Origin: Escherichia phage vB_EcoM_WFC
Sequence record: NC_048195.1
DNA: 64,000 bases
Direction: 5' to 3' (one strand)
The notes below the pieces were generated by a model. The model searched no databases. It saw only the letters and a program-made list of their open reading frames with translations, and was not told the DNA's origin. A program made the position numbers and the translations under genes. Within the stretch, counting starts at the first letter, position 1. Each line of letters opens with the position of its first letter. Below, piece after piece: positions 3,637-61,314 of this stretch.

Positions 3637-3909
3637 TGTAACGCTGGAAACTGTAACGTCGATTGATTATTGCGTTCGTGTGGTTTTTAGGACATGGGTC
3701 TTTTGGTGCGTTTTGCTACTTGATGGAATTTGCAGTACACTAATCAAAATACGACACATTTGGTCCACTAACTTTTCAAAGAAAAAGTCCTAGACAGTAC
3801 CGTACTATTTTGTACCCACAGGAAATTTGCCGTACACTCCTGCGCGGCAGGCAAAATAAAGGGGCCGCACTAAGCGACCCACGATTCACGGTTAAATCAG
3901 CAACACCCA

Positions 3910-5571: not shown

Positions 5572-7929
5572 TTATTTCGCTGCTTTCAGCGCGACTATCT
5601 CTGCCTCTAGGGATTCAACTTTTTTCATCAACTCCTGCACCACGTGCATAGTATCCAAAAGCATAGGCGTTGTGTCAAGTTCCTTTTGTTCAACAATCTC
5701 TCCTGGATCACTGCCAACATATTTACGCGTCTTAACATATAAAGGCTCAACAACCTCTGCTTGCTGTGCAATCACGCCATGCCGAACTCGATTTTGTTCG
5801 TCATTGTCATAAATGAACTCTACAAATTCCAGACCTTGGATATTAGAGTATGACTTTTCAACGCCAACAGGAGCGATGCCGTGTTTTACACGTGAGTCAG
5901 AAGTTCCATTTTTCGTATAGCTGAAGTTTCCATAATCCGTTGATCCATATATTTGACCATCAATGTCAAAAAAGTAACGGCAGAATTTTCCATTGTCTCC
6001 ACCGATAACTACACAGGCTATGCCAAATGCGTCATTACCTGGAATATACATGTGATATCCAACCTTTGTTGGGTATCCATTAGGTCTGGTGCCGCCGATA
6101 GAATATCCGCGCACCAGAAGATCTGAGCCGCTCGAAATGGCCACCCTGTCCATTCCGTTAGTTGTCAAGGTTGATGGATTGGCGTCAGTTATTCCATTCC
6201 ATGTGCCTAAAGGCGTATACATGCGGAATGGGTTGGTCTTCCCTGACTGTCGGAAGTCAACTGTGCCATCCTCATAGAATTTATAAGCGTGTTTTGAAGC
6301 GCCTTCTGACTCTATGACGGCGGCGTTAGAAGAACCCCATAAAGAACTTGAGTACAGACGTGCAAATTGTGATAGTGATGGGTTGCTGTATTTTGACTCT
6401 ACTTTGCCGCCGATAACCACAGTATCTACTGCTGGCGCGCTTGAATCTGCGTTTATCACACTCCACTGCGTATTTGCGGCAACAAATCCACCCGATGCAC
6501 GAATCACCCAAACGCCAACGAAGTTACGGCCCATGATTTCATCTGTTGCCGCGCCATAGATTGGACTTGAGCGTGATGCATCAATGTTGATTGTATTTAA
6601 ACGTCCCTCTACTGCGCCACTTCCAACGGGGATTGTGTCTCCAGCGCCTTGAGGATACAAATCGTTGTTTGTGTAAAAAGCACCTCGGACGGCTGTGCCA
6701 AAGATTTGCGCATAAGTACCTGCCGATACGCCTGCAGCTGAACCTGTTATGTTTGGTGCAGCGGATTCAAATATTTGGCCGTTCGCAGTCGAGTTGCCGC
6801 CGTCGCCACGCCCGTACAGCGCCCGTACAGAACCTGTTTGCACACCGTTCAGGTCTGGTACACGGAAAGTGGTTGTGCCGTTGCCCAAAGAATACTTTGC
6901 ACGTTTGAACTTATCAGCAAGCCAATCAGCATCTGCGATGGGAGAAAGCATTTGTGCATATGCCCAAAGTTCAGGCCAATCGGCACGGTTTAATAGTTGA
7001 CCGTCTGCAACGACTTCATACGGCTGGATGTATGAGCGACTATTTCGAAGGTGAAAATCACCTACGCCATAGTTCATAACACCGTTCATGCTTGGGCCGA
7101 CAGTGCCAGTGTTGACTAAGTTTTCCACCCAACGCTTTGTTGCGGCATCATAATCATTTACTGGGTCACCAGCCAGCGGCGTTGAGCCTTGTGGTCGGAT
7201 GTTAAGCCACGCCTGAGCATTGTCAGCAGAGCCAGTACCGCCCATAGAAGTAGGGACAATATTTTGATCAGCAACCGTTCCGAATCCAAAAGCAGACTTC
7301 ATGCCCTGAATGGTTGTTTGGCCTGTGCCACCATTTGCCACTGGGATGGTGCTTTGCGTACTGTACATTTGCACCCAGTCCGACCATAATGATGATCCGG
7401 CATTATATAACCTTTGGTATATGGCATTAATCCAATAAGGGGTGTATCTTTGAACGCAACTTTCTCCTGCAACGCCAGTTTTATAAACTTCAAGAATCCC
7501 GGCTTGCGCAACTGGATAATTCAAGGCTGTCGATGCCCCAGCATTGGCTGATTGGTGATATTGCCCGAACCAACTTCCAGTAAGCGCATTGAGATTTATT
7601 CCGTTAGGAATTTCTCCAAAATTACGCACGGTGTTGGTCAAGGTTGCAGCAGTAGTTCGAATGGAAAGCATGTCGCCAGCCGCCCATGCGCGCGCTGCAG
7701 TTCCTTCCTGTGCACGCTGCACGGTAAGGACGTTTCCGACCACGGCTGTTACGGTGACGATTTCGAATTGTAAGCCTGTTGCAGCGTCGACGATTGTCGC
7801 CACTACGCGCTCGTTTGCGCCCAAGGTCGGAAAGCCCGACCCTGAACGAATTGTGATGGTGGTGTCTGAAGTCGTGGTTGGCTGAGCCAGTGCGACCTCA
7901 AAGTTGTTTTTGAATATTAGCCTTGGCAT
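5572..7929 (-). CDS. Tail fiber protein with tail-collar-like motif and C-terminal intramolecular chaperone-like domain
   Basis: 785 aa; motifs TFRVPDLNG, YDAATKRWVE; Gly/Thr/Asn-rich repeats; C-terminal coiled coil ...VESLEAEIVALKAAK typical of S74-type chaperone; GAGGA RBS. Confidence 0.7.
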   Translation of the reverse strand: MPRLIFKNNFEVALAQPTTTSDTTITIRSGSGFPTLGANERVVATIVDAATGLQFEIVTVTAVVGNVLTVQRAQEGTAARAWAAGDMLSIRTTAATLTNTVRNFGEIPNGINLNALTGSWFGQYHQSANAGASTALNYPVAQAGILEVYKTGVAGESCVQRYTPYWINAIYQRLYNAGSSLWSDWVQMYSTQSTIPVANGGTGQTTIQGMKSAFGFGTVADQNIVPTSMGGTGSADNAQAWLNIRPQGSTPLAGDPVNDYDAATKRWVENLVNTGTVGPSMNGVMNYGVGDFHLRNSRSYIQPYEVVADGQLLNRADWPELWAYAQMLSPIADADWLADKFKRAKYSLGNGTTTFRVPDLNGVQTGSVRALYGRGDGGNSTANGQIFESAAPNITGSAAGVSAGTYAQIFGTAVRGAFYTNNDLYPQGAGDTIPVGSGAVEGRLNTINIDASRSSPIYGAATDEIMGRNFVGVWVIRASGGFVAANTQWSVINADSSAPAVDTVVIGGKVESKYSNPSLSQFARLYSSSLWGSSNAAVIESEGASKHAYKFYEDGTVDFRQSGKTNPFRMYTPLGTWNGITDANPSTLTTNGMDRVAISSGSDLLVRGYSIGGTRPNGYPTKVGYHMYIPGNDAFGIACVVIGGDNGKFCRYFFDIDGQIYGSTDYGNFSYTKNGTSDSRVKHGIAPVGVEKSYSNIQGLEFVEFIYDNDEQNRVRHGVIAQQAEVVEPLYVKTRKYVGSDPGEIVEQKELDTTPMLLDTMHVVQELMKKVESLEAEIVALKAAK

Positions 7930-9166: not shown

Positions 9167-9343
9167 ATTACCTCCGGTTTTGAGTTAATATGATTATAAC
9201 GCAGAGTCTCAGAAAGGCAAACTTTTTGTGAATTTTAATCAAAAAAATGGCCAGAAAAAATCTGGCCGAAAGATCACCCTTTATCCACTACTAAGCTGGA
9301 ATCATAATTTTACTTGATATAGCTTGTACAAGCAAACTATAAT

Positions 9344-23636: not shown

Positions 23637-24104
23637 ATGATTAACGTTTCCGGTTTTGGCGCTTCGATTCGTTTGGTAGCATCAAACACTTTTCCGAATG
23701 GTGTGACTCTTTCTGATTTTGCAGATGATGCTGATCCGATTGACGCGCCGGACCTGCAAATTTCTGAGGCTGCAATGGGCCTTAACGGTGACTTAGTAGT
23801 ATGGAACCGTGCAAACCCGCTTGAAGTAGGTGTGAACATCATCCCTACTTCTGAAAGTGATGTCAACTTGGACGTTCTTGCAGCTGCAAACCGCGTAGGC
23901 AAGCGTAAGAACTCTGCAAAAGACGTGATCACACTTGTGCTGACTTATCCTTCTGGAATGGTTATCACGCTAAACAAAGGCACCTTGACAACTGGTTCAG
24001 TAATTCCTGGCATCCAGTCTCAAGGTCGTGTGAAAACACGTCAATATCGCTTCAAGTTTGAGAACGTAGTCAAAACTGGCGTGAGCAACCAAGAGATTTT
24101 ATAA
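23637..24104 (+). CDS. Tail tube protein (paralog 1)
   Basis: 155 aa; N-terminus MINVSGFGASIRLVA... paralogous to 25055-25552. Confidence 0.5.
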   Translation: MINVSGFGASIRLVASNTFPNGVTLSDFADDADPIDAPDLQISEAAMGLNGDLVVWNRANPLEVGVNIIPTSESDVNLDVLAAANRVGKRKNSAKDVITLVLTYPSGMVITLNKGTLTTGSVIPGIQSQGRVKTRQYRFKFENVVKTGVSNQEIL

Positions 24105-25054: not shown

Positions 25055-25552
25055 ATGGTCAATATTAGTGGATTTGGCACAAGCATTAGAATTGTCGCTC
25101 TTCAATCTTTTCCTGTTGGGCTGAATATCAGTTCTTTGTCTGATGACCAGGATTCGCTAATTATTGAGGAAGTTGAATCAGTAGGTTATCAACTTACTTA
25201 CGACGGCGGCATTTGCATATACGACAAAGCCGCCGTCGTTCGCGTATCCATTGCGGTCATTCCAAACACTGAAGACGACATAAATCTTAAGCTTTTATTA
25301 TCTGCCCGTAAAGGTGGATTCAAGTGGTTGCCAATTCAGGATGTGACATCGATGCTCATTACATATCCTGACGGTGGAAGGGTGGCATTCTCTAACGGAA
25401 CGATAATCAGCGGTCCGCTTGGCGACTCCATAGAGCAATCAGGCCGTCGCAAGACAAACCGATACACATTTGTGTTTGCCAGCTACGGTGGCGCACAGAG
25501 CACGTCTCAAATTGCCAAGGGCGTGGTGCAGAGCATATTGGGGTCCATTTAA
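25055..25552 (+). CDS. Tail tube protein (paralog 2)
   Basis: 165 aa; MVNISGFGTSIRIVA... clearly related to 23637-24104. Confidence 0.5.
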   Translation: MVNISGFGTSIRIVALQSFPVGLNISSLSDDQDSLIIEEVESVGYQLTYDGGICIYDKAAVVRVSIAVIPNTEDDINLKLLLSARKGGFKWLPIQDVTSMLITYPDGGRVAFSNGTIISGPLGDSIEQSGRRKTNRYTFVFASYGGAQSTSQIAKGVVQSILGSI

Positions 25553-30705: not shown

Positions 30706-31434
30706 ATGATGGCAGAAAAGTTAACCCAACTTACAAGCCCCAACCAAACTGACAAATCAAGTATGTTTGCCGCGCTGCAGGGAATGCTGGACCGTGGCAA
30801 GTATACCACTGACGGCATGATTCCTGCACAAGTAATATCTTATGACCGCAAACAGAATTTAGCAGTCATAAAGCCTGTTATTCATTTCGTAAGTCTTGAT
30901 GATAGACCAGTGGAGCGTCAACCACTGGTGTCAATTCCTGTATTGGCAATCGGCGGCGGCGGCTTCGTAATCAACTTTCCTCTGAAAGAGGGTGATTTGG
31001 GCTGGATATTCGCTGGCGACCGCGAGTTGTCGACATTCCTTGAAGAATTGAAGCCGACCGCGCCTACCAATGGCCGCGCGAAAACTTTCGCTGATGGACT
31101 GTTCATACCGGATGTATTTAGAAAATACACCATAAGCGGAGAGGATGCAGGCTCAATGGTAATCCAGTCACTCAGCGGCGCTGTCCGCATTGCATTAAGT
31201 GATGACTCGATAAACATAACTGCATCGGCTGGAGTAAATGTGAAAACACCAATAACCACTATCGACCAACAATTGATAGTTAATGGAAAGGCAACGTTCA
31301 ATGGTGGTATAGAAGGGAAAGAAGGAACGACGGCAACGCTTCCGACTGGCACAACAATCGGCGGCACAAATGTATCCACTCACGGTCACATAGGTAACGG
31401 ACCTGGAAACAGAACTGGGGATATGATAGAATGA
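30706..31434 (+). CDS. Baseplate central spike protein (gpV-like, putative)
   Basis: Gly-rich core; C-terminal STHGHIGNGPG His motif reminiscent of spike apex. Confidence 0.5.
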   Translation: MMAEKLTQLTSPNQTDKSSMFAALQGMLDRGKYTTDGMIPAQVISYDRKQNLAVIKPVIHFVSLDDRPVERQPLVSIPVLAIGGGGFVINFPLKEGDLGWIFAGDRELSTFLEELKPTAPTNGRAKTFADGLFIPDVFRKYTISGEDAGSMVIQSLSGAVRIALSDDSINITASAGVNVKTPITTIDQQLIVNGKATFNGGIEGKEGTTATLPTGTTIGGTNVSTHGHIGNGPGNRTGDMIE

Positions 31435-32702
31435 GTGCACAATATTCTTACATAGTAAGCACTGGTGTAATAACCATCGACACAGCCGATTTGCTGGCTG
31501 ACGTTCAAAGTGAATGGATTGAGTCATTAGGGGTCGGGCTTGACGTTGATGCCTCGACACCGCAAGGCACCCTAATCGCGACAGAGACTTTGGCAAGAAC
31601 TTCAGTCATGAAGAACAATGCCGAGCTGGGAAGTCTCATCAACCCTAATTATTCATATGGCGTATACCTTGATGCCATCGCGGCGTTGCTTGGTATTGAG
31701 CGAACGAAAAACATCAGCACGATGTTGAAAGGAATTACCGCAGAAGGAACGCCGCTGTTGGAAATTCCTGCTGGAAGTTTGCTGACGGATTCAAACGGTA
31801 CATACTGGTATGTTCTTGAAGACGTTCAAATCACTTCGACTGGCAAGACAGGCAATATGACTCTTGCATCAAAAGAGTATGGCTCATTTACTGTTGCGCC
31901 TGATGAAGAGTTTACCGTGGTGCAAGGATATGACGTCATCGGATGGTCAAGAACGTATTCAACATCAGCAACGACGACCGTACCAGGTACGCAATACATG
32001 GGCGACGGAGCGTTAAAGGCCGCTCGCGTTAAGCGCCTTTACCAGCAGGGAATTGCATCGCTTGGTGCTATTCGCGCTCGCGCCATGTCGGTCGACGGCG
32101 TGGAATCGGTGATGGTCGTGGAGAACGACACGGGATTGCCTGGAACGGTGCGCGGCATCACCTTTTCAACGCCTAACGGTGTCTGGGTGTGCGCAAGCGG
32201 AACGTTCGATAAGCAAGTTTTTGCTGAGACTATTTTCAAGGCAAAGATGGGTGGCCAGCCGTGGGACTTTGGTGCTACCAACCAGGGTGATCCAGTCAAC
32301 TCGCCTGATGGAATAGAAGTTGTCGACGAAGAATCGCAACTGTCTTATTTCGTAAAGTTCAACACTGCTGTCATATATGACTTGTATGTCGACATTACTG
32401 TTGTAAGAGGCACCGCAACCGCCGATGCCGAATCTATTATTGCCGCTGTGTTGAATTACGGTAATGGAAATTTTAACGGCGAGCAAGGATATGCAGTGGG
32501 CCAATCTCAATCTTCTTTTGAGATTGCTTCAGCAGTGTCTTGCGAGTATCCAGGTCTGTACATTAAAGATTGCAAAATTGCAGCAGTAAAAAGCGGACAG
32601 GCAGCGCCAAATTATCCATCCGATTACGGCAGCGAGTGGATTGCCAATCCTTGGGATAAGGCTAATACTATGCGCGGCTTCATCAACGTTAAATTTGTGT
32701 GA
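31431..32702 (+). CDS. Baseplate J-like protein
   Basis: 423 aa; position and size typical; 4-nt overlap with spike gene. Confidence 0.55.
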   Translation: MSAQYSYIVSTGVITIDTADLLADVQSEWIESLGVGLDVDASTPQGTLIATETLARTSVMKNNAELGSLINPNYSYGVYLDAIAALLGIERTKNISTMLKGITAEGTPLLEIPAGSLLTDSNGTYWYVLEDVQITSTGKTGNMTLASKEYGSFTVAPDEEFTVVQGYDVIGWSRTYSTSATTTVPGTQYMGDGALKAARVKRLYQQGIASLGAIRARAMSVDGVESVMVVENDTGLPGTVRGITFSTPNGVWVCASGTFDKQVFAETIFKAKMGGQPWDFGATNQGDPVNSPDGIEVVDEESQLSYFVKFNTAVIYDLYVDITVVRGTATADAESIIAAVLNYGNGNFNGEQGYAVGQSQSSFEIASAVSCEYPGLYIKDCKIAAVKSGQAAPNYPSDYGSEWIANPWDKANTMRGFINVKFV

Positions 32703-32708
32703 GGAACT

Positions 32709-32981
32709 ATGCAAAAGTTTGACACAAACCTGTTGCAAAACCTTAAGTGGATGCAGAACAATGCGCCAAACATCACATCTTTGGTGCAAAAGAAAAGTGA
32801 CTGGTATGAAAGATACCAAGATCAGTTTTGGACTGACTGGTACAATAACATTTTTAACATTGACACTTGTGATGCAATGGGCATTTATATTTGGTGCGAC
32901 ATTCTTTGCATACCAAGAGACTTTGTGGACTTAAGCAATTATGAGCACAACTGGGCGTTTGGACCGACGCGACAACTTTGA
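32709..32981 (+). CDS. Baseplate/tail fiber-associated protein, N-terminal segment (possibly frameshifted gene)
   Basis: 90-aa ORF overlapping next ORF in +1 frame. Confidence 0.35.
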   Translation: MQKFDTNLLQNLKWMQNNAPNITSLVQKKSDWYERYQDQFWTDWYNNIFNIDTCDAMGIYIWCDILCIPRDFVDLSNYEHNWAFGPTRQL

Positions 32982-33219
32982 AGGTGCGGACAACATCGGC
33001 GGCAACTTCTTTGGTGCTGGCGGGAAGGTTGTAAAGAATATCGAAGAAGCACGCATACTTCTTAAGCTTCGTTATCTGACGCTCACAAGTGATGGCCGCA
33101 TCGAAAGTATCAACCGCATGCTTAAGTGGATTTTCAACCGTGGAGAGGCTTGGGATTACTCTTCATCACGCTACGCATACGTGGACCGACAACACTCAAG
33201 GCGCAGTATCTTCATCTGA
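32941..33219 (+). CDS. Baseplate/tail fiber-associated protein, second segment (possibly frameshifted gene)
   Basis: 92-aa ORF overlapping both neighbours in different frames. Confidence 0.3.
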   Translation: MSTTGRLDRRDNFEGADNIGGNFFGAGGKVVKNIEEARILLKLRYLTLTSDGRIESINRMLKWIFNRGEAWDYSSSRYAYVDRQHSRRSIFI

Positions 33220-35446
33220 ATCAACAAATGGATCATTCCTTCTATACGACTGGCAGGGGTCAACTGAGATTCAGCACGATTATAAGCAGATACTTTTAAG
33301 CCATGGCAACAACGCCGGACTGACTATCAGCGGAGTGTCAGGCACCGTGTCACGGATGGCGCATCCAGATTGGTACTCATGGGGGAATGGTTCCGGCACA
33401 GGTCTTGTCGGCGGCGACACAAGACAGTATGGCGGCCCTGATTACTATGGGCAGTTGTGTGGCGATTACCCAGGTGAGGCAATAGAGAATTTTGCCAACG
33501 CAGTAAGGGTCGTCAAGACGGCTTCAAGCGGTGAGCCTGTGTATTCTTTGGCCAATAATCCAAGCGCACAGTCAATTGCCCTTCCTTCGCAGGCTGGCGT
33601 TAACGTTTGCTATAGCTTCTACATAAAGGTGCTTTCTGAAAACGTCGCTTCTGTTTCTGTTACAGAGAATAGTGATGCATCGAGTAATGGAAAGCTGTTT
33701 GACCCCGTCACTGGCCAGTTCAACTTGGACCCGTCATTGAGCTATTTCATCAAAGGTAAATTCGATGGAGTAAGAAGGGAATCAAACCGTGGTGGCATAA
33801 AAGCAATTGGCGGCGATTGGTATCGAATCTGGATTGTAGAGCAGACGGCAACCGCTGCTTCTGGAGTAAGTACCAGCTTTTCAATAGAGTTGAAGGCGAC
33901 TGCCGCTGGATCAACTCAAACTCGTGAATTGCCTGAAGGGTCTGATGCTCTTTTGTTTGGATACTCGATTTGCGTCTGCGACCCTGTTCAGAATCCAAAT
34001 GGACCTGAGCCTTATTTTTATGGAACGCAAAACCCTCCTTCTGACGGAACAGCAATCCTGTCTGTAACGGCGGGAACGCTCAATAACATCTCCTGTGCAA
34101 ACGGACCGCTGACGACAAGAAACGGTGTAGTTGGCGAGTCATTCATGCAACCTGGCTCATCACTTGCATACTCTGGCTCAATCGGTGGCTACCCGTACCC
34201 AGGGAACGCCACGCTGATTGCAGAGACTGATGGAATCAGACGCTCATGGAACGTTAGCAGGCTGGATGGAGTACCGCCGCCGCCGACCGCCGACTATTAC
34301 ATGGAATACGTCATCGGACCTTATTTCGCCAACAACCTGTCTGACAACTTTAAGACGCTAGTTGGCGACAGGAATGAAGGATTCTTGCCAGCAAATGCCG
34401 GAATACGCTGGCAGCTTTACCAAGAAGTCGCAGACTTATCTGATATCGATTTGACTGTCAACGACATAACAGACACGCGCGTAGGATTTGAAACGGAAGG
34501 TGTTGCGTGGATTAACACTGACGGTATCATTAGAGTTGGCGGCATCAACGAGTGGCCGCTGAACAACTTCAACGGTGTGATACGCCAGCTTGAATCTTTG
34601 AAAGGTGTAAACCAGGTCGTCGACGGCGCACTTGTCAACGACTATTCAATCTCAAAAGCATCAAGAGATGACTTTGGTCGTGAAATACCACGCGCGGCAA
34701 TCACTAACTATTGGCGCTACACACAGCCAAACGACGGTACATCTTTTGGCAATATCATTGAGGATGGCGCAAACACTGTCACAGCTACGCCAATCAGCGG
34801 TGTGCCCAACCAGTTCCCATCATTCAAGCTTTCCGCTACAATAGGGACTGTGCCAGCGTCCGGTTATGCACGCGCTGTACTTGCTACTAAATACACTGGC
34901 ACCCTGACTGGCCCTTTGTCATTTATCGCAATAGTCAAAAACAACACGGTTAACGGTCAAAAACTTTTTGTAACTGTACCGGATGGGATGGGTGGCTATA
35001 TCCCTAAATTCTACAACATAGGCGCAGGTGATTTGCAACGTATCGAAATTGACCTTGCCGCTGAGATTGTTGAAGGCGCTACCTGGGATGGATCAACAGG
35101 CGGCATCAGCATCGGTTTGATATCAGGGAAAGACTTGCCGACCGAAGTTGGTACGACTCTTGAACTTGATATTTTAAGCTTGATGCTTGTGTCTGGTAGT
35201 ACGATGAATGCGCTTGCAATTTCAACAAGCGAAGATTTCGCAAAGAAAACTGCGACTTCTATATACATCAAAAACCCAGGATCACTTGCCACTGGAGTTC
35301 AACTGATTGCTTCTAATGGTGATGTTGTAGCAACAGTAAACTTTCCGAGAAGTGCTGCTGGTGGTTATGTTTCAAGCATGAACATAACTGACTTAACTGG
35401 TGATTGGGCAACAACCCTTTTGTCAAAAATTAAATACATCGTGTAG
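33089..35446 (+). CDS. Tail fiber / baseplate wedge protein
   Basis: 785 aa, Gly/Ser/Thr/Asn-rich; tail-gene context; N-terminus overlaps upstream ORF by 130 nt. Confidence 0.5.
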   Translation: MMAASKVSTACLSGFSTVERLGITLHHATHTWTDNTQGAVSSSESTNGSFLLYDWQGSTEIQHDYKQILLSHGNNAGLTISGVSGTVSRMAHPDWYSWGNGSGTGLVGGDTRQYGGPDYYGQLCGDYPGEAIENFANAVRVVKTASSGEPVYSLANNPSAQSIALPSQAGVNVCYSFYIKVLSENVASVSVTENSDASSNGKLFDPVTGQFNLDPSLSYFIKGKFDGVRRESNRGGIKAIGGDWYRIWIVEQTATAASGVSTSFSIELKATAAGSTQTRELPEGSDALLFGYSICVCDPVQNPNGPEPYFYGTQNPPSDGTAILSVTAGTLNNISCANGPLTTRNGVVGESFMQPGSSLAYSGSIGGYPYPGNATLIAETDGIRRSWNVSRLDGVPPPPTADYYMEYVIGPYFANNLSDNFKTLVGDRNEGFLPANAGIRWQLYQEVADLSDIDLTVNDITDTRVGFETEGVAWINTDGIIRVGGINEWPLNNFNGVIRQLESLKGVNQVVDGALVNDYSISKASRDDFGREIPRAAITNYWRYTQPNDGTSFGNIIEDGANTVTATPISGVPNQFPSFKLSATIGTVPASGYARAVLATKYTGTLTGPLSFIAIVKNNTVNGQKLFVTVPDGMGGYIPKFYNIGAGDLQRIEIDLAAEIVEGATWDGSTGGISIGLISGKDLPTEVGTTLELDILSLMLVSGSTMNALAISTSEDFAKKTATSIYIKNPGSLATGVQLIASNGDVVATVNFPRSAAGGYVSSMNITDLTGDWATTLLSKIKYIV

Positions 35447-35456
35447 AGGAACGGCA

Positions 35457-37241
35457 ATGCCAACACTTATTAACAGACCTTTCGCGCAAAGCGGTGATGT
35501 ATCCGTGGTGCCGGATGCAAGTCCAAGCGGTTATGTGAACTTCCAGCGCGGCTACACCCCTGACTATGCACTTGCGCTGGAAGCCGGAAACGTCGCCGCG
35601 AAAGCAGTTGAACGTGAGTCGATGAACTGGTTGCTGAATCTGATCACCGACAACCTTATGTTCATCCAGGACCACGGCGCTCAACAGTATTTCTCGTCTG
35701 ACTTGAAGCCAGATGGATACCCGAAAAATGCCATCGTTGTCAGCAACTCCGGCACCCCTTCAGCGCCTGAATGGCGCATTTTCCAGAGTGTGGTAGACGG
35801 CAACACCAGCGCAGTCCCAGCTAACGGCGAAACGGAATCTTGGCAGGAATTGACGCTGCCTAGCGAAGCGCGAAAATATATTCCTATGCCTGCTGGCGGC
35901 GATGCGCAAAACCCGTATTTTGTTCGCGGACTGATTTCAAACTTTGTGGACTTTGATAATATCACGACTTCCACAACTATTGTTATTCAATCTGACGCAG
36001 TCGCCGCTCTCTGCTCTAACATCCCGAACGCGGTTGGTGCGACGAAGGTTGCAGGTCGTCTCCAGGTTTGCGCTTGGCAGGTTAATGCGCAGACTTTCGC
36101 CCTGCAACAATACACGTCAATGAACGGATATGTTTTCACCCGCTCTTATACTTCTGGTGCCTGGAGTGCCTGGATTCAAAATGCTACTGTTCAAGACGTG
36201 CAAATTGGAACGCCGAATCTTGCATCAGGTAAAGGCGCACAAGATATAATCCTTACCGTTCCAGCAGGTTATTCATGGCCTCCGTCAGCAGGTAGTCGCC
36301 TGACCATCATTAATGATGTCACGACCACCGGACCTGTCACCGTGACCATTGGTGCAAACAAAGTTGCAGTCCTTGGATTCGACGGCGGCGAGCTGCCAGC
36401 AGGGTCCATCGTCGGGCTTCTTCCTTTTACTATTATTTATGACGGCACCGTTTGGCGTCTTCTTCAAGCATTCGGCGCGGCGCAAATCGGTGTCGATGCT
36501 AGTGAGCCGCAACAGTTTGTTACAAAGCGCCAACTCGATGCTTTGGCCGCGAAGTTGATCACTATGGGTGATGTGTTCGAAGTCGGTGAGACTCGATTCT
36601 TGACTAATGGCACCAACCCAAATACTAAACTGGGCGCTTACGGTCAGGTATGGACCAGGTTGCCTGATAACATGGTCATCAGGACGTCTGGCACGGCAAG
36701 AAACGGTCTTGACACTGGAGGTGCAGACTCTGTTACTCTTACCGCCGCCATGCTTCCTCTCCACAATCACAGCGTGGACATCACTACGCGACAAAGTGGT
36801 CCATGGTCCAATACCACTGGAGACGCAGGCAACCATAACCACACAGGCGATACTAGTCAGAACGGTGCTCACGTGCACGGAATGGATGCCGCTGGTAATC
36901 ATTATCACGACAGTGGCTGGGGTGAGGCTTATGCAGACCAGGCTAGATACGGGGTATATGATGGCACGCACAATAACCTTGGAAGTGCAAGATCTGATTA
37001 TGACAACTATAAATACAACACCTCAACTAACGGCAACCACGTTCACAATATTCAATCTTCTGGGTCACACACTCATGGGTTGAATATAAATTACGCTGGC
37101 AATCACAGCCATGGATATACCCTCCCCGCTCACACTCACGATGTGGTCGGTAACACTGGCGATGCAGGGCAGTCCGTCCCAACGGCTGTTTCAACTCTGC
37201 CGCGATATGTCGTCTTGAACGGCTGGTACAGAAGCGCATAA
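35457..37241 (+). CDS. Tail fiber with His-x-His repeat tip (gp37-like metal-binding motifs)
   Basis: ATG 35457 with GAGGA RBS; C-terminal HNHTGD, HVHG, HYHD, HVHN, HTHG, HSHG, HTHD repeats. Confidence 0.65.
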   Translation: MPTLINRPFAQSGDVSVVPDASPSGYVNFQRGYTPDYALALEAGNVAAKAVERESMNWLLNLITDNLMFIQDHGAQQYFSSDLKPDGYPKNAIVVSNSGTPSAPEWRIFQSVVDGNTSAVPANGETESWQELTLPSEARKYIPMPAGGDAQNPYFVRGLISNFVDFDNITTSTTIVIQSDAVAALCSNIPNAVGATKVAGRLQVCAWQVNAQTFALQQYTSMNGYVFTRSYTSGAWSAWIQNATVQDVQIGTPNLASGKGAQDIILTVPAGYSWPPSAGSRLTIINDVTTTGPVTVTIGANKVAVLGFDGGELPAGSIVGLLPFTIIYDGTVWRLLQAFGAAQIGVDASEPQQFVTKRQLDALAAKLITMGDVFEVGETRFLTNGTNPNTKLGAYGQVWTRLPDNMVIRTSGTARNGLDTGGADSVTLTAAMLPLHNHSVDITTRQSGPWSNTTGDAGNHNHTGDTSQNGAHVHGMDAAGNHYHDSGWGEAYADQARYGVYDGTHNNLGSARSDYDNYKYNTSTNGNHVHNIQSSGSHTHGLNINYAGNHSHGYTLPAHTHDVVGNTGDAGQSVPTAVSTLPRYVVLNGWYRSA

Positions 37242-60806: not shown

Positions 60807-61085
60807 ATGATTAATACATACAAAGTATTCTTTGTCAAGTGCACATCATCTATTGATGACCAATTTACTGCTGGCAAGAATTATCCCGTGATTTCTGAGT
60901 CAAGGCTAGATATAATCTTGAATGATCATGAAATCTATGAGCCGATGCCAGCGACTGCGTTTGATGTTATCGGTCACGTTCGGATTAAGACTAATGTTGA
61001 TACGATGCATGATCCGTTGTTCAAGAAGCAAATCAAGAATGCCATGCAAGACTTTTGCGCGGCTATGTTTAAATATTATAAGTGA
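60807..61085 (+). CDS. Hypothetical protein (92 aa)
   Basis: ORF. Confidence 0.4.
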   Translation: MINTYKVFFVKCTSSIDDQFTAGKNYPVISESRLDIILNDHEIYEPMPATAFDVIGHVRIKTNVDTMHDPLFKKQIKNAMQDFCAAMFKYYK

Positions 61086-61092
61086 GTTGAAG

Positions 61093-61314
61093 ATGAGCAA
61101 GAAAACCCTTAAGGCTGGCGACCGTATCCGTTGGATGTCAGGACAGAATATGCGCGCAGGCACCATCCTTGAGCTGGATGAATACCTTACCGATTCGCGC
61201 GGTCGCAATCATTACCGTGTCAGAATCGATACAGTAAAAGAAGATGACAAGTCACTTGTTGGTGAAGTGGTCATCGTTACTCCACGTCAAATCAAGGCGG
61301 CTTGTGAAGCATGA
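61093..61314 (+). CDS. Small protein (73 aa)
   Basis: ATG 61093 inside track ORF 60922-61314; in-frame start after upstream gene stop. Confidence 0.4.
   Translation: MSKKTLKAGDRIRWMSGQNMRAGTILELDEYLTDSRGRNHYRVRIDTVKEDDKSLVGEVVIVTPRQIKAACEA

Follow-up and report, generated by a model that had tools for sequence, protein, structure and literature searches.

Organisation of the locus

The window analysed here is the whole stretch of 64,000 nucleotides taken from the genome of Escherichia phage vB_EcoM_WFC (NC_048195.1), the founding isolate of the genus Wifcevirus (Korf et al. 2019, PMC6563267). Within its tail gene region, three overlapping open reading frames (ORFs) lie between a gene for a Baseplate_J-like protein and a tail fibre gene. 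The features of this region are as follows.

31431-32702, + strand: upstream neighbour, Baseplate_J-like wedge protein (Pfam PF04865), intact
32701-32706, + strand: Shine-Dalgarno-like GAGGAA, serving ATG 32709, the only credible start of the gene
32709-35446, + strand: disrupted baseplate wedge gene ("triplex", E217 gp45-like), orthologue of the 912-aa Wifcevirus protein
32709-32981, + strand: ORF1, 90 aa, ATG start
32941-33219, + strand: ORF2, 92 aa, ATG start
33089-35446, + strand: ORF3, 785 aa, GTG start
32968-32971, + strand: first lesion, (CG)2 here against (CG)3 in Bas100 and FEC19, a 2-bp deletion
32976-32981, + strand: CTT TGA at the end of ORF1, a prfB-like +1 site created by the deletion
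33183-33184, + strand: second lesion, GG here against a single G in relatives, a 1-bp insertion
35457-37241, + strand: downstream neighbour, conserved HxH-rich tail fibre, 97.1% match to Bas100_0031 in a single frame, intact

The starts of the three ORFs (32709, 32941 and 33089) are 0, 1 and 2 modulo 3, each a step of +1 from the one before, and neighbouring ORFs overlap by 41 nt (ORF1/ORF2) and 131 nt (ORF2/ORF3). The ORF listing agrees exactly with the coordinates in the initial annotation, which had described three overlapping frames each shifted by +1. The ORFs are colinear on the profile phrog_4797 (positions 3-91, 89-171, and 171-567), and in tblastn and alignment they tile the 912-aa product of Bas100_0030 at residues 1-88, 88-159, and 160-912, with identities of 98.9% for ORF1, 100% for ORF2, and 99.2% for ORF3. 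Because they are colinear on one profile and on one 912-aa orthologue, the arrangement is, judged from the sequence, not due to chance. These alignments identify the three ORFs as consecutive pieces of one conserved structural gene.

Each ORF combines genuine and spurious coding sequence. ORF1 encodes residues 1-87 of the wedge protein, followed by two aberrant residues (QL) and TGA. The genuine coding part of ORF2 is 32968-33183 only (residues 88-159), flanked by out-of-frame read-through of 9 residues at the start and 11 at the end. In ORF3, genuine coding runs over 33185-35443 (residues 160-912). The 5' parts of ORF2 (32941-32967) and ORF3 (33089-33184) are out-of-frame DNA that is open by chance. 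Exact protein look-up identified ORF2 as "hypothetical protein WFC_00049" of GenBank and RefSeq (QBQ77441.1 and YP_009823602.1), which forms a singleton protein cluster present in one contig only. The same look-up gave no match for ORF1 or for ORF3 with two alternative starts. WFC_00049 is most likely a product of the two indels.

Most confirmed starts in the window have anti-Shine-Dalgarno duplexes of -5 to -9 kcal/mol, and the GAGGAA upstream of ATG 32709 (-6.2 kcal/mol) is inside this range. The ATG of ORF2 has a weak Shine-Dalgarno sequence (-3.0 kcal/mol), and the values for ORF3 are +0.7 kcal/mol at GTG 33089 and -0.2 kcal/mol at ATG 33092. ORF2 and ORF3 have no usable ribosome-binding site, and internal initiation of either was rejected for lack of a Shine-Dalgarno sequence. 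The only decent pair of Shine-Dalgarno sequence and start in the frame of ORF3 is at GTG 33347 (-6.4 kcal/mol), and a start there would omit the first 213 residues, including the whole conserved N-terminal domain.

Two indels unique to the WFC record

In megablast, 27 related phage records match 31400-35500 at 89-99% nucleotide identity. In all 27, the matched span is one base longer than in the window (H14: 126 + 1), as the two indels together predict. A single CDS of 2739 nt and 912 aa is annotated in all five records that were read directly (Bas100, FEC19, Mansfield, WFH, and vB_Eco4M-7n), where it adjoins the Baseplate_J-like gene on one side and the next tail gene on the other. The intact orthologues (Bas100_0030, FEC19 gp53, Mansfield_050, WFH_00046, and vB_Eco4M-7 gp62) have the same start, stop, neighbours, and 912-aa product as the WFC gene, without the 2-bp deletion and the 1-bp insertion. 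Phage WFH comes from the same study as WFC, and its gene is unbroken. The orthologues form a 90% cluster of 205 members; among the 15 listed, 13 are 912 aa long and two are flagged as partial by their source. A distant relative (P0003, on a 72.5-kb contig) has a single ORF of 1082 aa, with 39% identity over the full length and the same gene order.

Alignment of the gene shows exactly two length differences, which were placed by DNA alignment and by blastn against Bas100. The window reads GACGCGAC at 32968-32971; the corresponding sequence is GACGCGCGAC in Bas100 and FEC19 and CACACGCGAC in Mansfield, in each case two bases longer. At 33183/33184, CGTGACC of the relatives is changed to CGTGGACC in the window. 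The lesions fall at residues 87/88 and 159/160 of the wedge protein, with a spacing of 216 nt. Each moves the true frame by +1 (0 to 1 to 2), and with a net length change of -1 the frame is never restored. The -2 change followed by the +1 change therefore reproduces the observed three-frame pattern.

In-silico repair (CG added and one G removed) gives an ORF of 2739 nt and 912 aa without an internal stop. The repaired protein is 99% identical to the orthologues; relative to Bas100_0030, the repaired gene has 14 synonymous and 7 non-synonymous codon differences. Because the repaired ORF is free of stops and has this pattern of codon differences, the wedge gene is without any sign of decay. The initial annotation had offered two structural readings of the locus. 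One of them, a baseplate or fibre gene broken by two frameshifts, is borne out by relatives with a single 2739-nt ORF, from which the window differs by -2 and +1 indels. The other, unusually overlapped small genes, is refuted by the annotation's own criterion applied in reverse, as the homologues have one gene and not three.

Both lesions are confined to this record. In IMG/VR, degenerate patterns of the two mutant junctions matched the WFC contig only. The deletion-junction pattern had no match in metagenome contigs, and the wild-type form of the first junction was found in other viral contigs.

The remainder of the WFC sequence was compared with phage Bas100. When 98 Bas100 proteins were searched against the window with tblastn, the wedge gene alone was split across frames; none of the other 95 proteins with a counterpart in the window was frame-broken, and a few divergent or window-end cases matched partly. 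Bas100_0096 and Bas100_0111 (Bas100 61013-61297 and 68106-68336) have no counterpart in the window, where they would be expected at ~1980-2280 and ~9234-9241, and the window has a 45-bp insertion at ~3586 relative to Bas100. These are accessory-gene differences between close relatives. Comparison of blastn positions with CDS coordinates placed the other uncompensated indels between Bas100 CDSs. An assembly that is error-ridden overall was rejected, given that only one of the 98 tested CDSs is frame-broken and that the other uncompensated indels are intergenic in Bas100. A platform artefact that drops CG units at (CG)3 sites was also rejected, as ~30 other (CG)3/(GC)3 sites in the window are intact.

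The genomes of the founding study were produced with PacBio RSII/HGAP3 or Illumina/SPAdes (Korf et al. 2019, PMC6563267); for WFC, its supplement gives a length of 72,472 bp and a coverage of 319.8x. An intergenic inverted repeat at 3838-3870 reads CCTGC-GCG-GCAGG in the window and CCTGC-GCGCG-GCAGG in Bas100, a difference of one 2-bp (GC) unit. A 1-bp difference in a G run lies 20 nt after this repeat. Both differences are relative to Bas100 alone and carry no direction of change.

Identity of the encoded protein and its neighbours

The Pfam domain PF11041 (DUF2612/Phage_Wedge1) is at the N-terminus of the protein, and in the window it is divided between ORF1 (37.9 bits, profile positions 3-63) and ORF2 (22.1 bits, profile positions 102-135). 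The ORF2 part alone is just below the Pfam gathering score of 23.5 bits. In the intact cluster representative (P0002), which is 99% identical to Bas100_0030, the domain is one contiguous match of 59.9 bits at residues 10-146. These profile matches place the WFC wedge protein in the PF11041 baseplate wedge family. The family is named DUF2612 in the hmmscan library and Phage_Wedge1 in a newer Pfam release, and the latter name agrees with the structural assignment.

Bas100_0030, which is 99% identical to the repaired window protein, was used as the phmmer query against PDB sequences. Its residues 4-185 match 8ENV_K (4.3e-41) and 9B45_v (1.2e-41). These chains represent E217 gp45, the "triplex" protein (PDB 8ENV/8EON), and the Pbunavirus "gp46 baseplate wedge 2" (PDB 9B45). 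A weaker C-terminal motif match joins query residues 509-572 to residues 442-503 of the E217 gp45/9B45 gp46 chain. According to the BASEL paper, Wifcevirus is related to Pbunavirus. PF11041 is common to the Wifcevirus protein, E217 gp45, and 9B45 gp46, and so is the gene order of J-like wedge gene, this gene, and tail fibre. The Wifcevirus protein differs from the other two in its length (912 aa against 500-504 aa) and in a diverged middle region, and the WFC gene, unlike theirs, is frame-broken in the deposited record. By homology, the protein is identified as a counterpart of the E217 gp45 baseplate wedge/triplex subunit, the fibre anchor.

The E217 baseplate has six "nut" units, each a triplex in which two conformers of gp44 (J-like) join one gp45. 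Loop 76-123 of gp45 inserts into the coiled coil at the N-terminus of fibre gp46, whose gene lies directly downstream (PMC10329688). By analogy with gp45, the N-terminal PF11041 domain of the Wifcevirus protein would hold together two copies of the J-like protein encoded upstream and, through one of its loops, anchor the tail fibre encoded downstream. By position, the gene at 31431-32702, whose product is 99.8% identical to Bas100_0029 in a single frame, corresponds to the triplex partner gp44 of E217, and the gene at 35457-37241 corresponds to E217 gp46. In the phmmer alignment to E217 gp45, the two lesions map to approximately gp45 residues 88 and 168. The first is within the fibre-attachment loop, and both are within the conserved N-terminal domain. 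In virions of vB_Eco4M-7, mass spectrometry detected the orthologue, a 98.6-kDa "putative structural protein" whose entry stands between those of Baseplate J and the tail fibre (PMC7048862).

Compared with its Pbunavirus homologues, the Wifcevirus wedge protein has ~400 additional residues. The last ~340 aa of the protein (residues 573-912, ~34425-35443) are conserved in the 39%-identical distant relative and have no Pfam match, and the C-terminal 598 aa had no match among PDB sequences at E values up to 10. This C-terminal extension may serve as a further module, for binding or at the baseplate periphery. An AF2 model of the full-length orthologue, made from an alignment of two sequences only, had a pLDDT of 33.9 and a pTM of 0.28, values too low for use.

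Identity as a tail fibre was rejected for this protein, which matches PF11041 alone in Pfam, and in PHROGs matches families of unknown function and one generic "structural protein" family. The initial annotation had called the locus a tail fiber gene, a label that is inaccurate: the protein is an E217 gp45-like wedge subunit, and the fibre is encoded by the next gene (35457-37241). The fibre ORF mechanically opens at GTG 35400, overlapping the end of the wedge gene, and the start supported by homologues is ATG 35457, which has a GAGGAA Shine-Dalgarno sequence. The fibre protein contains many HxH motifs (HNH, HVH, HYH, HTH, and HSH) typical of a T4 gp37-like fibre tip. The BASEL paper describes a T4 gp37-like tip for the conserved Wifcevirus fibre, and it recognises two fibres in the genus, the conserved HxH-tipped fibre and a variable T-shaped fibre. 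In the window, the conserved fibre is at 35457-37241 and the T-shaped fibre at 5575-7929 (- strand); neither is the wedge gene.

The T-shaped fibre at 5575-7929 has dual receptor-binding domains and 62.7% protein identity to Bas100, against at least 97% for most other proteins. Its gene looks like a horizontally exchanged host-range module, such as the BASEL paper describes for the genus. Two neighbouring genes in the tail region (23637-24101 and 25055-25549) are paralogues with 33% protein identity. The label "tail fiber protein" on their Bas100 counterparts is probably a mislabel, as the genes encode proteins of ~155-165 aa and come right after the sheath gene.

Origin of the two indels

We infer that the two indels are probably sequence errors, introduced locally in the consensus or assembly, rather than real mutations. 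Errors are the most likely explanation because the indels are unique to this record, the sequenced phage forms plaques, and a wedge component is essential in related systems. Homologous wedge subunits are essential in model myophages (T4 gp7, P2 gpI, and Mu gp48), and their null alleles are lethal. By analogy with the E217, T4, Mu, and P2 homologues, the Wifcevirus wedge gene is presumably essential. In 64 kb that are otherwise clean, only 216 nt separate the two lesions. By our own estimate, two independent events would lie this close with a chance of ~0.7%, and the closeness suggests one locally bad stretch of consensus. Counting against error, two consensus errors are surprising in an otherwise clean assembly with ~320x coverage, neither lesion is a classic long-homopolymer error, and CG units are not lost systematically in the window.

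A rather unlikely explanation, although some evidence favours it, is that the sequenced WFC stock carried both indels as real mutations. In that case the gene would have become a pseudogene very recently, or the library would have been dominated by a defective or heterogeneous sub-population. Survival would depend on a dispensable protein or C-terminal part on the propagation host, or on complementation by intact genomes. An assembly at ~320x coverage without other CDS-level errors is consistent with this explanation, as are lesions that are atypical for homopolymer errors. A second (GC) unit is lost relative to Bas100 at the intergenic hairpin near 3842, and dinucleotide slippage may occur in the lineage. 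However, both lesions are inside the conserved N-terminal domain that in E217 gp45 forms the triplex and the fibre-attachment loop, and the lethality of null alleles in the model myophages argues against survival of such mutants. The net shift is -1, and the second lesion does not suppress the first. All three pieces retain 99-100% amino acid identity with no further decay, and the first junction occurs in no other isolate or metagenome contig.

Programmed recoding is very improbable as the explanation. Under it, ribosomes would reach the full-length protein by shifting +1 twice in succession, first at the prfB-like CUU UGA. As at the E. coli prfB (RF2) site CUU UGA C, ORF1 ends in CUU UGA and the continuing frame is +1. 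A +1 slip at CTT TGA (32976-32981) would give a near wild-type product with DNF changed to QL, and the predicted junction peptide is …GPTRQL-EGADN… / …WAFGPTRQLEGADN…. Unlike prfB, the site has no SD-like AGGGGG stimulator (the bases upstream of CUU UGA are GCGACAA), its context is UGA A, it is not conserved, and a second, unrelated shift is needed. The CUU UGA owes its existence to the deletion alone; at this position the relatives have AAC TTT GAA in frame. No slippery codon was found at the second junction, where the ORF ends in AUC UGA (ATC TGA in the DNA), and the DNA lacks the long A or T runs on which transcriptional slippage could act. The homologues examined use one frame and have no conserved recoding signal. 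From what is generally known of prfB-type sites, two inefficient events in series would be expected to give a negligible yield.

Among the causes listed in the initial annotation, indel error is probable and pseudogenisation by very recent mutation rather unlikely. Programmed slippage is not supported, given that the homologues need no frameshift, the second junction is not slippery, and a stimulator is missing at the first.

Three independent overlapping small genes whose products assemble non-covalently are barely conceivable: ORF2 is annotated as a separate protein in GenBank and RefSeq and the first split point falls in a loop of the E217 homologue, but the split is absent from all homologues examined, the start duplexes of ORF2 (-3.0 kcal/mol) and ORF3 (+0.7/-0.2 kcal/mol) compare poorly with the -5 to -9 kcal/mol of most real starts, and the ORF3 start, 125 nt upstream of the ORF2 stop, would be too far away for coupled re-initiation. 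Even taken together, recoding and split genes have at most a very slight probability. It is very improbable that WFC carries both indels and yet builds a working baseplate, whether through two +1 frameshifts or through non-covalent assembly of fragments. If true, this would be a natural case in which spontaneous recoding rescues an essential virion gene from a double frameshift that looks lethal.

The locus is an ordinary baseplate gene of a known kind that carries two record-specific indels, and it gives no pointer to a new mechanism. In the reference genome of the Wifcevirus type species (vB_EcoM_WFC, in both GenBank and RefSeq), the baseplate wedge gene is broken, and it accounts for at least one annotated "hypothetical protein", the fragment WFC_00049. 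The consequences are an inflated gene count, singleton protein clusters, and the possible misleading of comparative or recoding screens. Once two positions are corrected, the gene again encodes a 912-aa structural protein. A Wifcevirus "hypothetical protein" can now be named as an E217 gp45-like triplex/fibre-anchor subunit whose C-terminal extension of ~340 aa is uncharacterised. The value of the finding is mainly in curation of the Wifcevirus reference genome.
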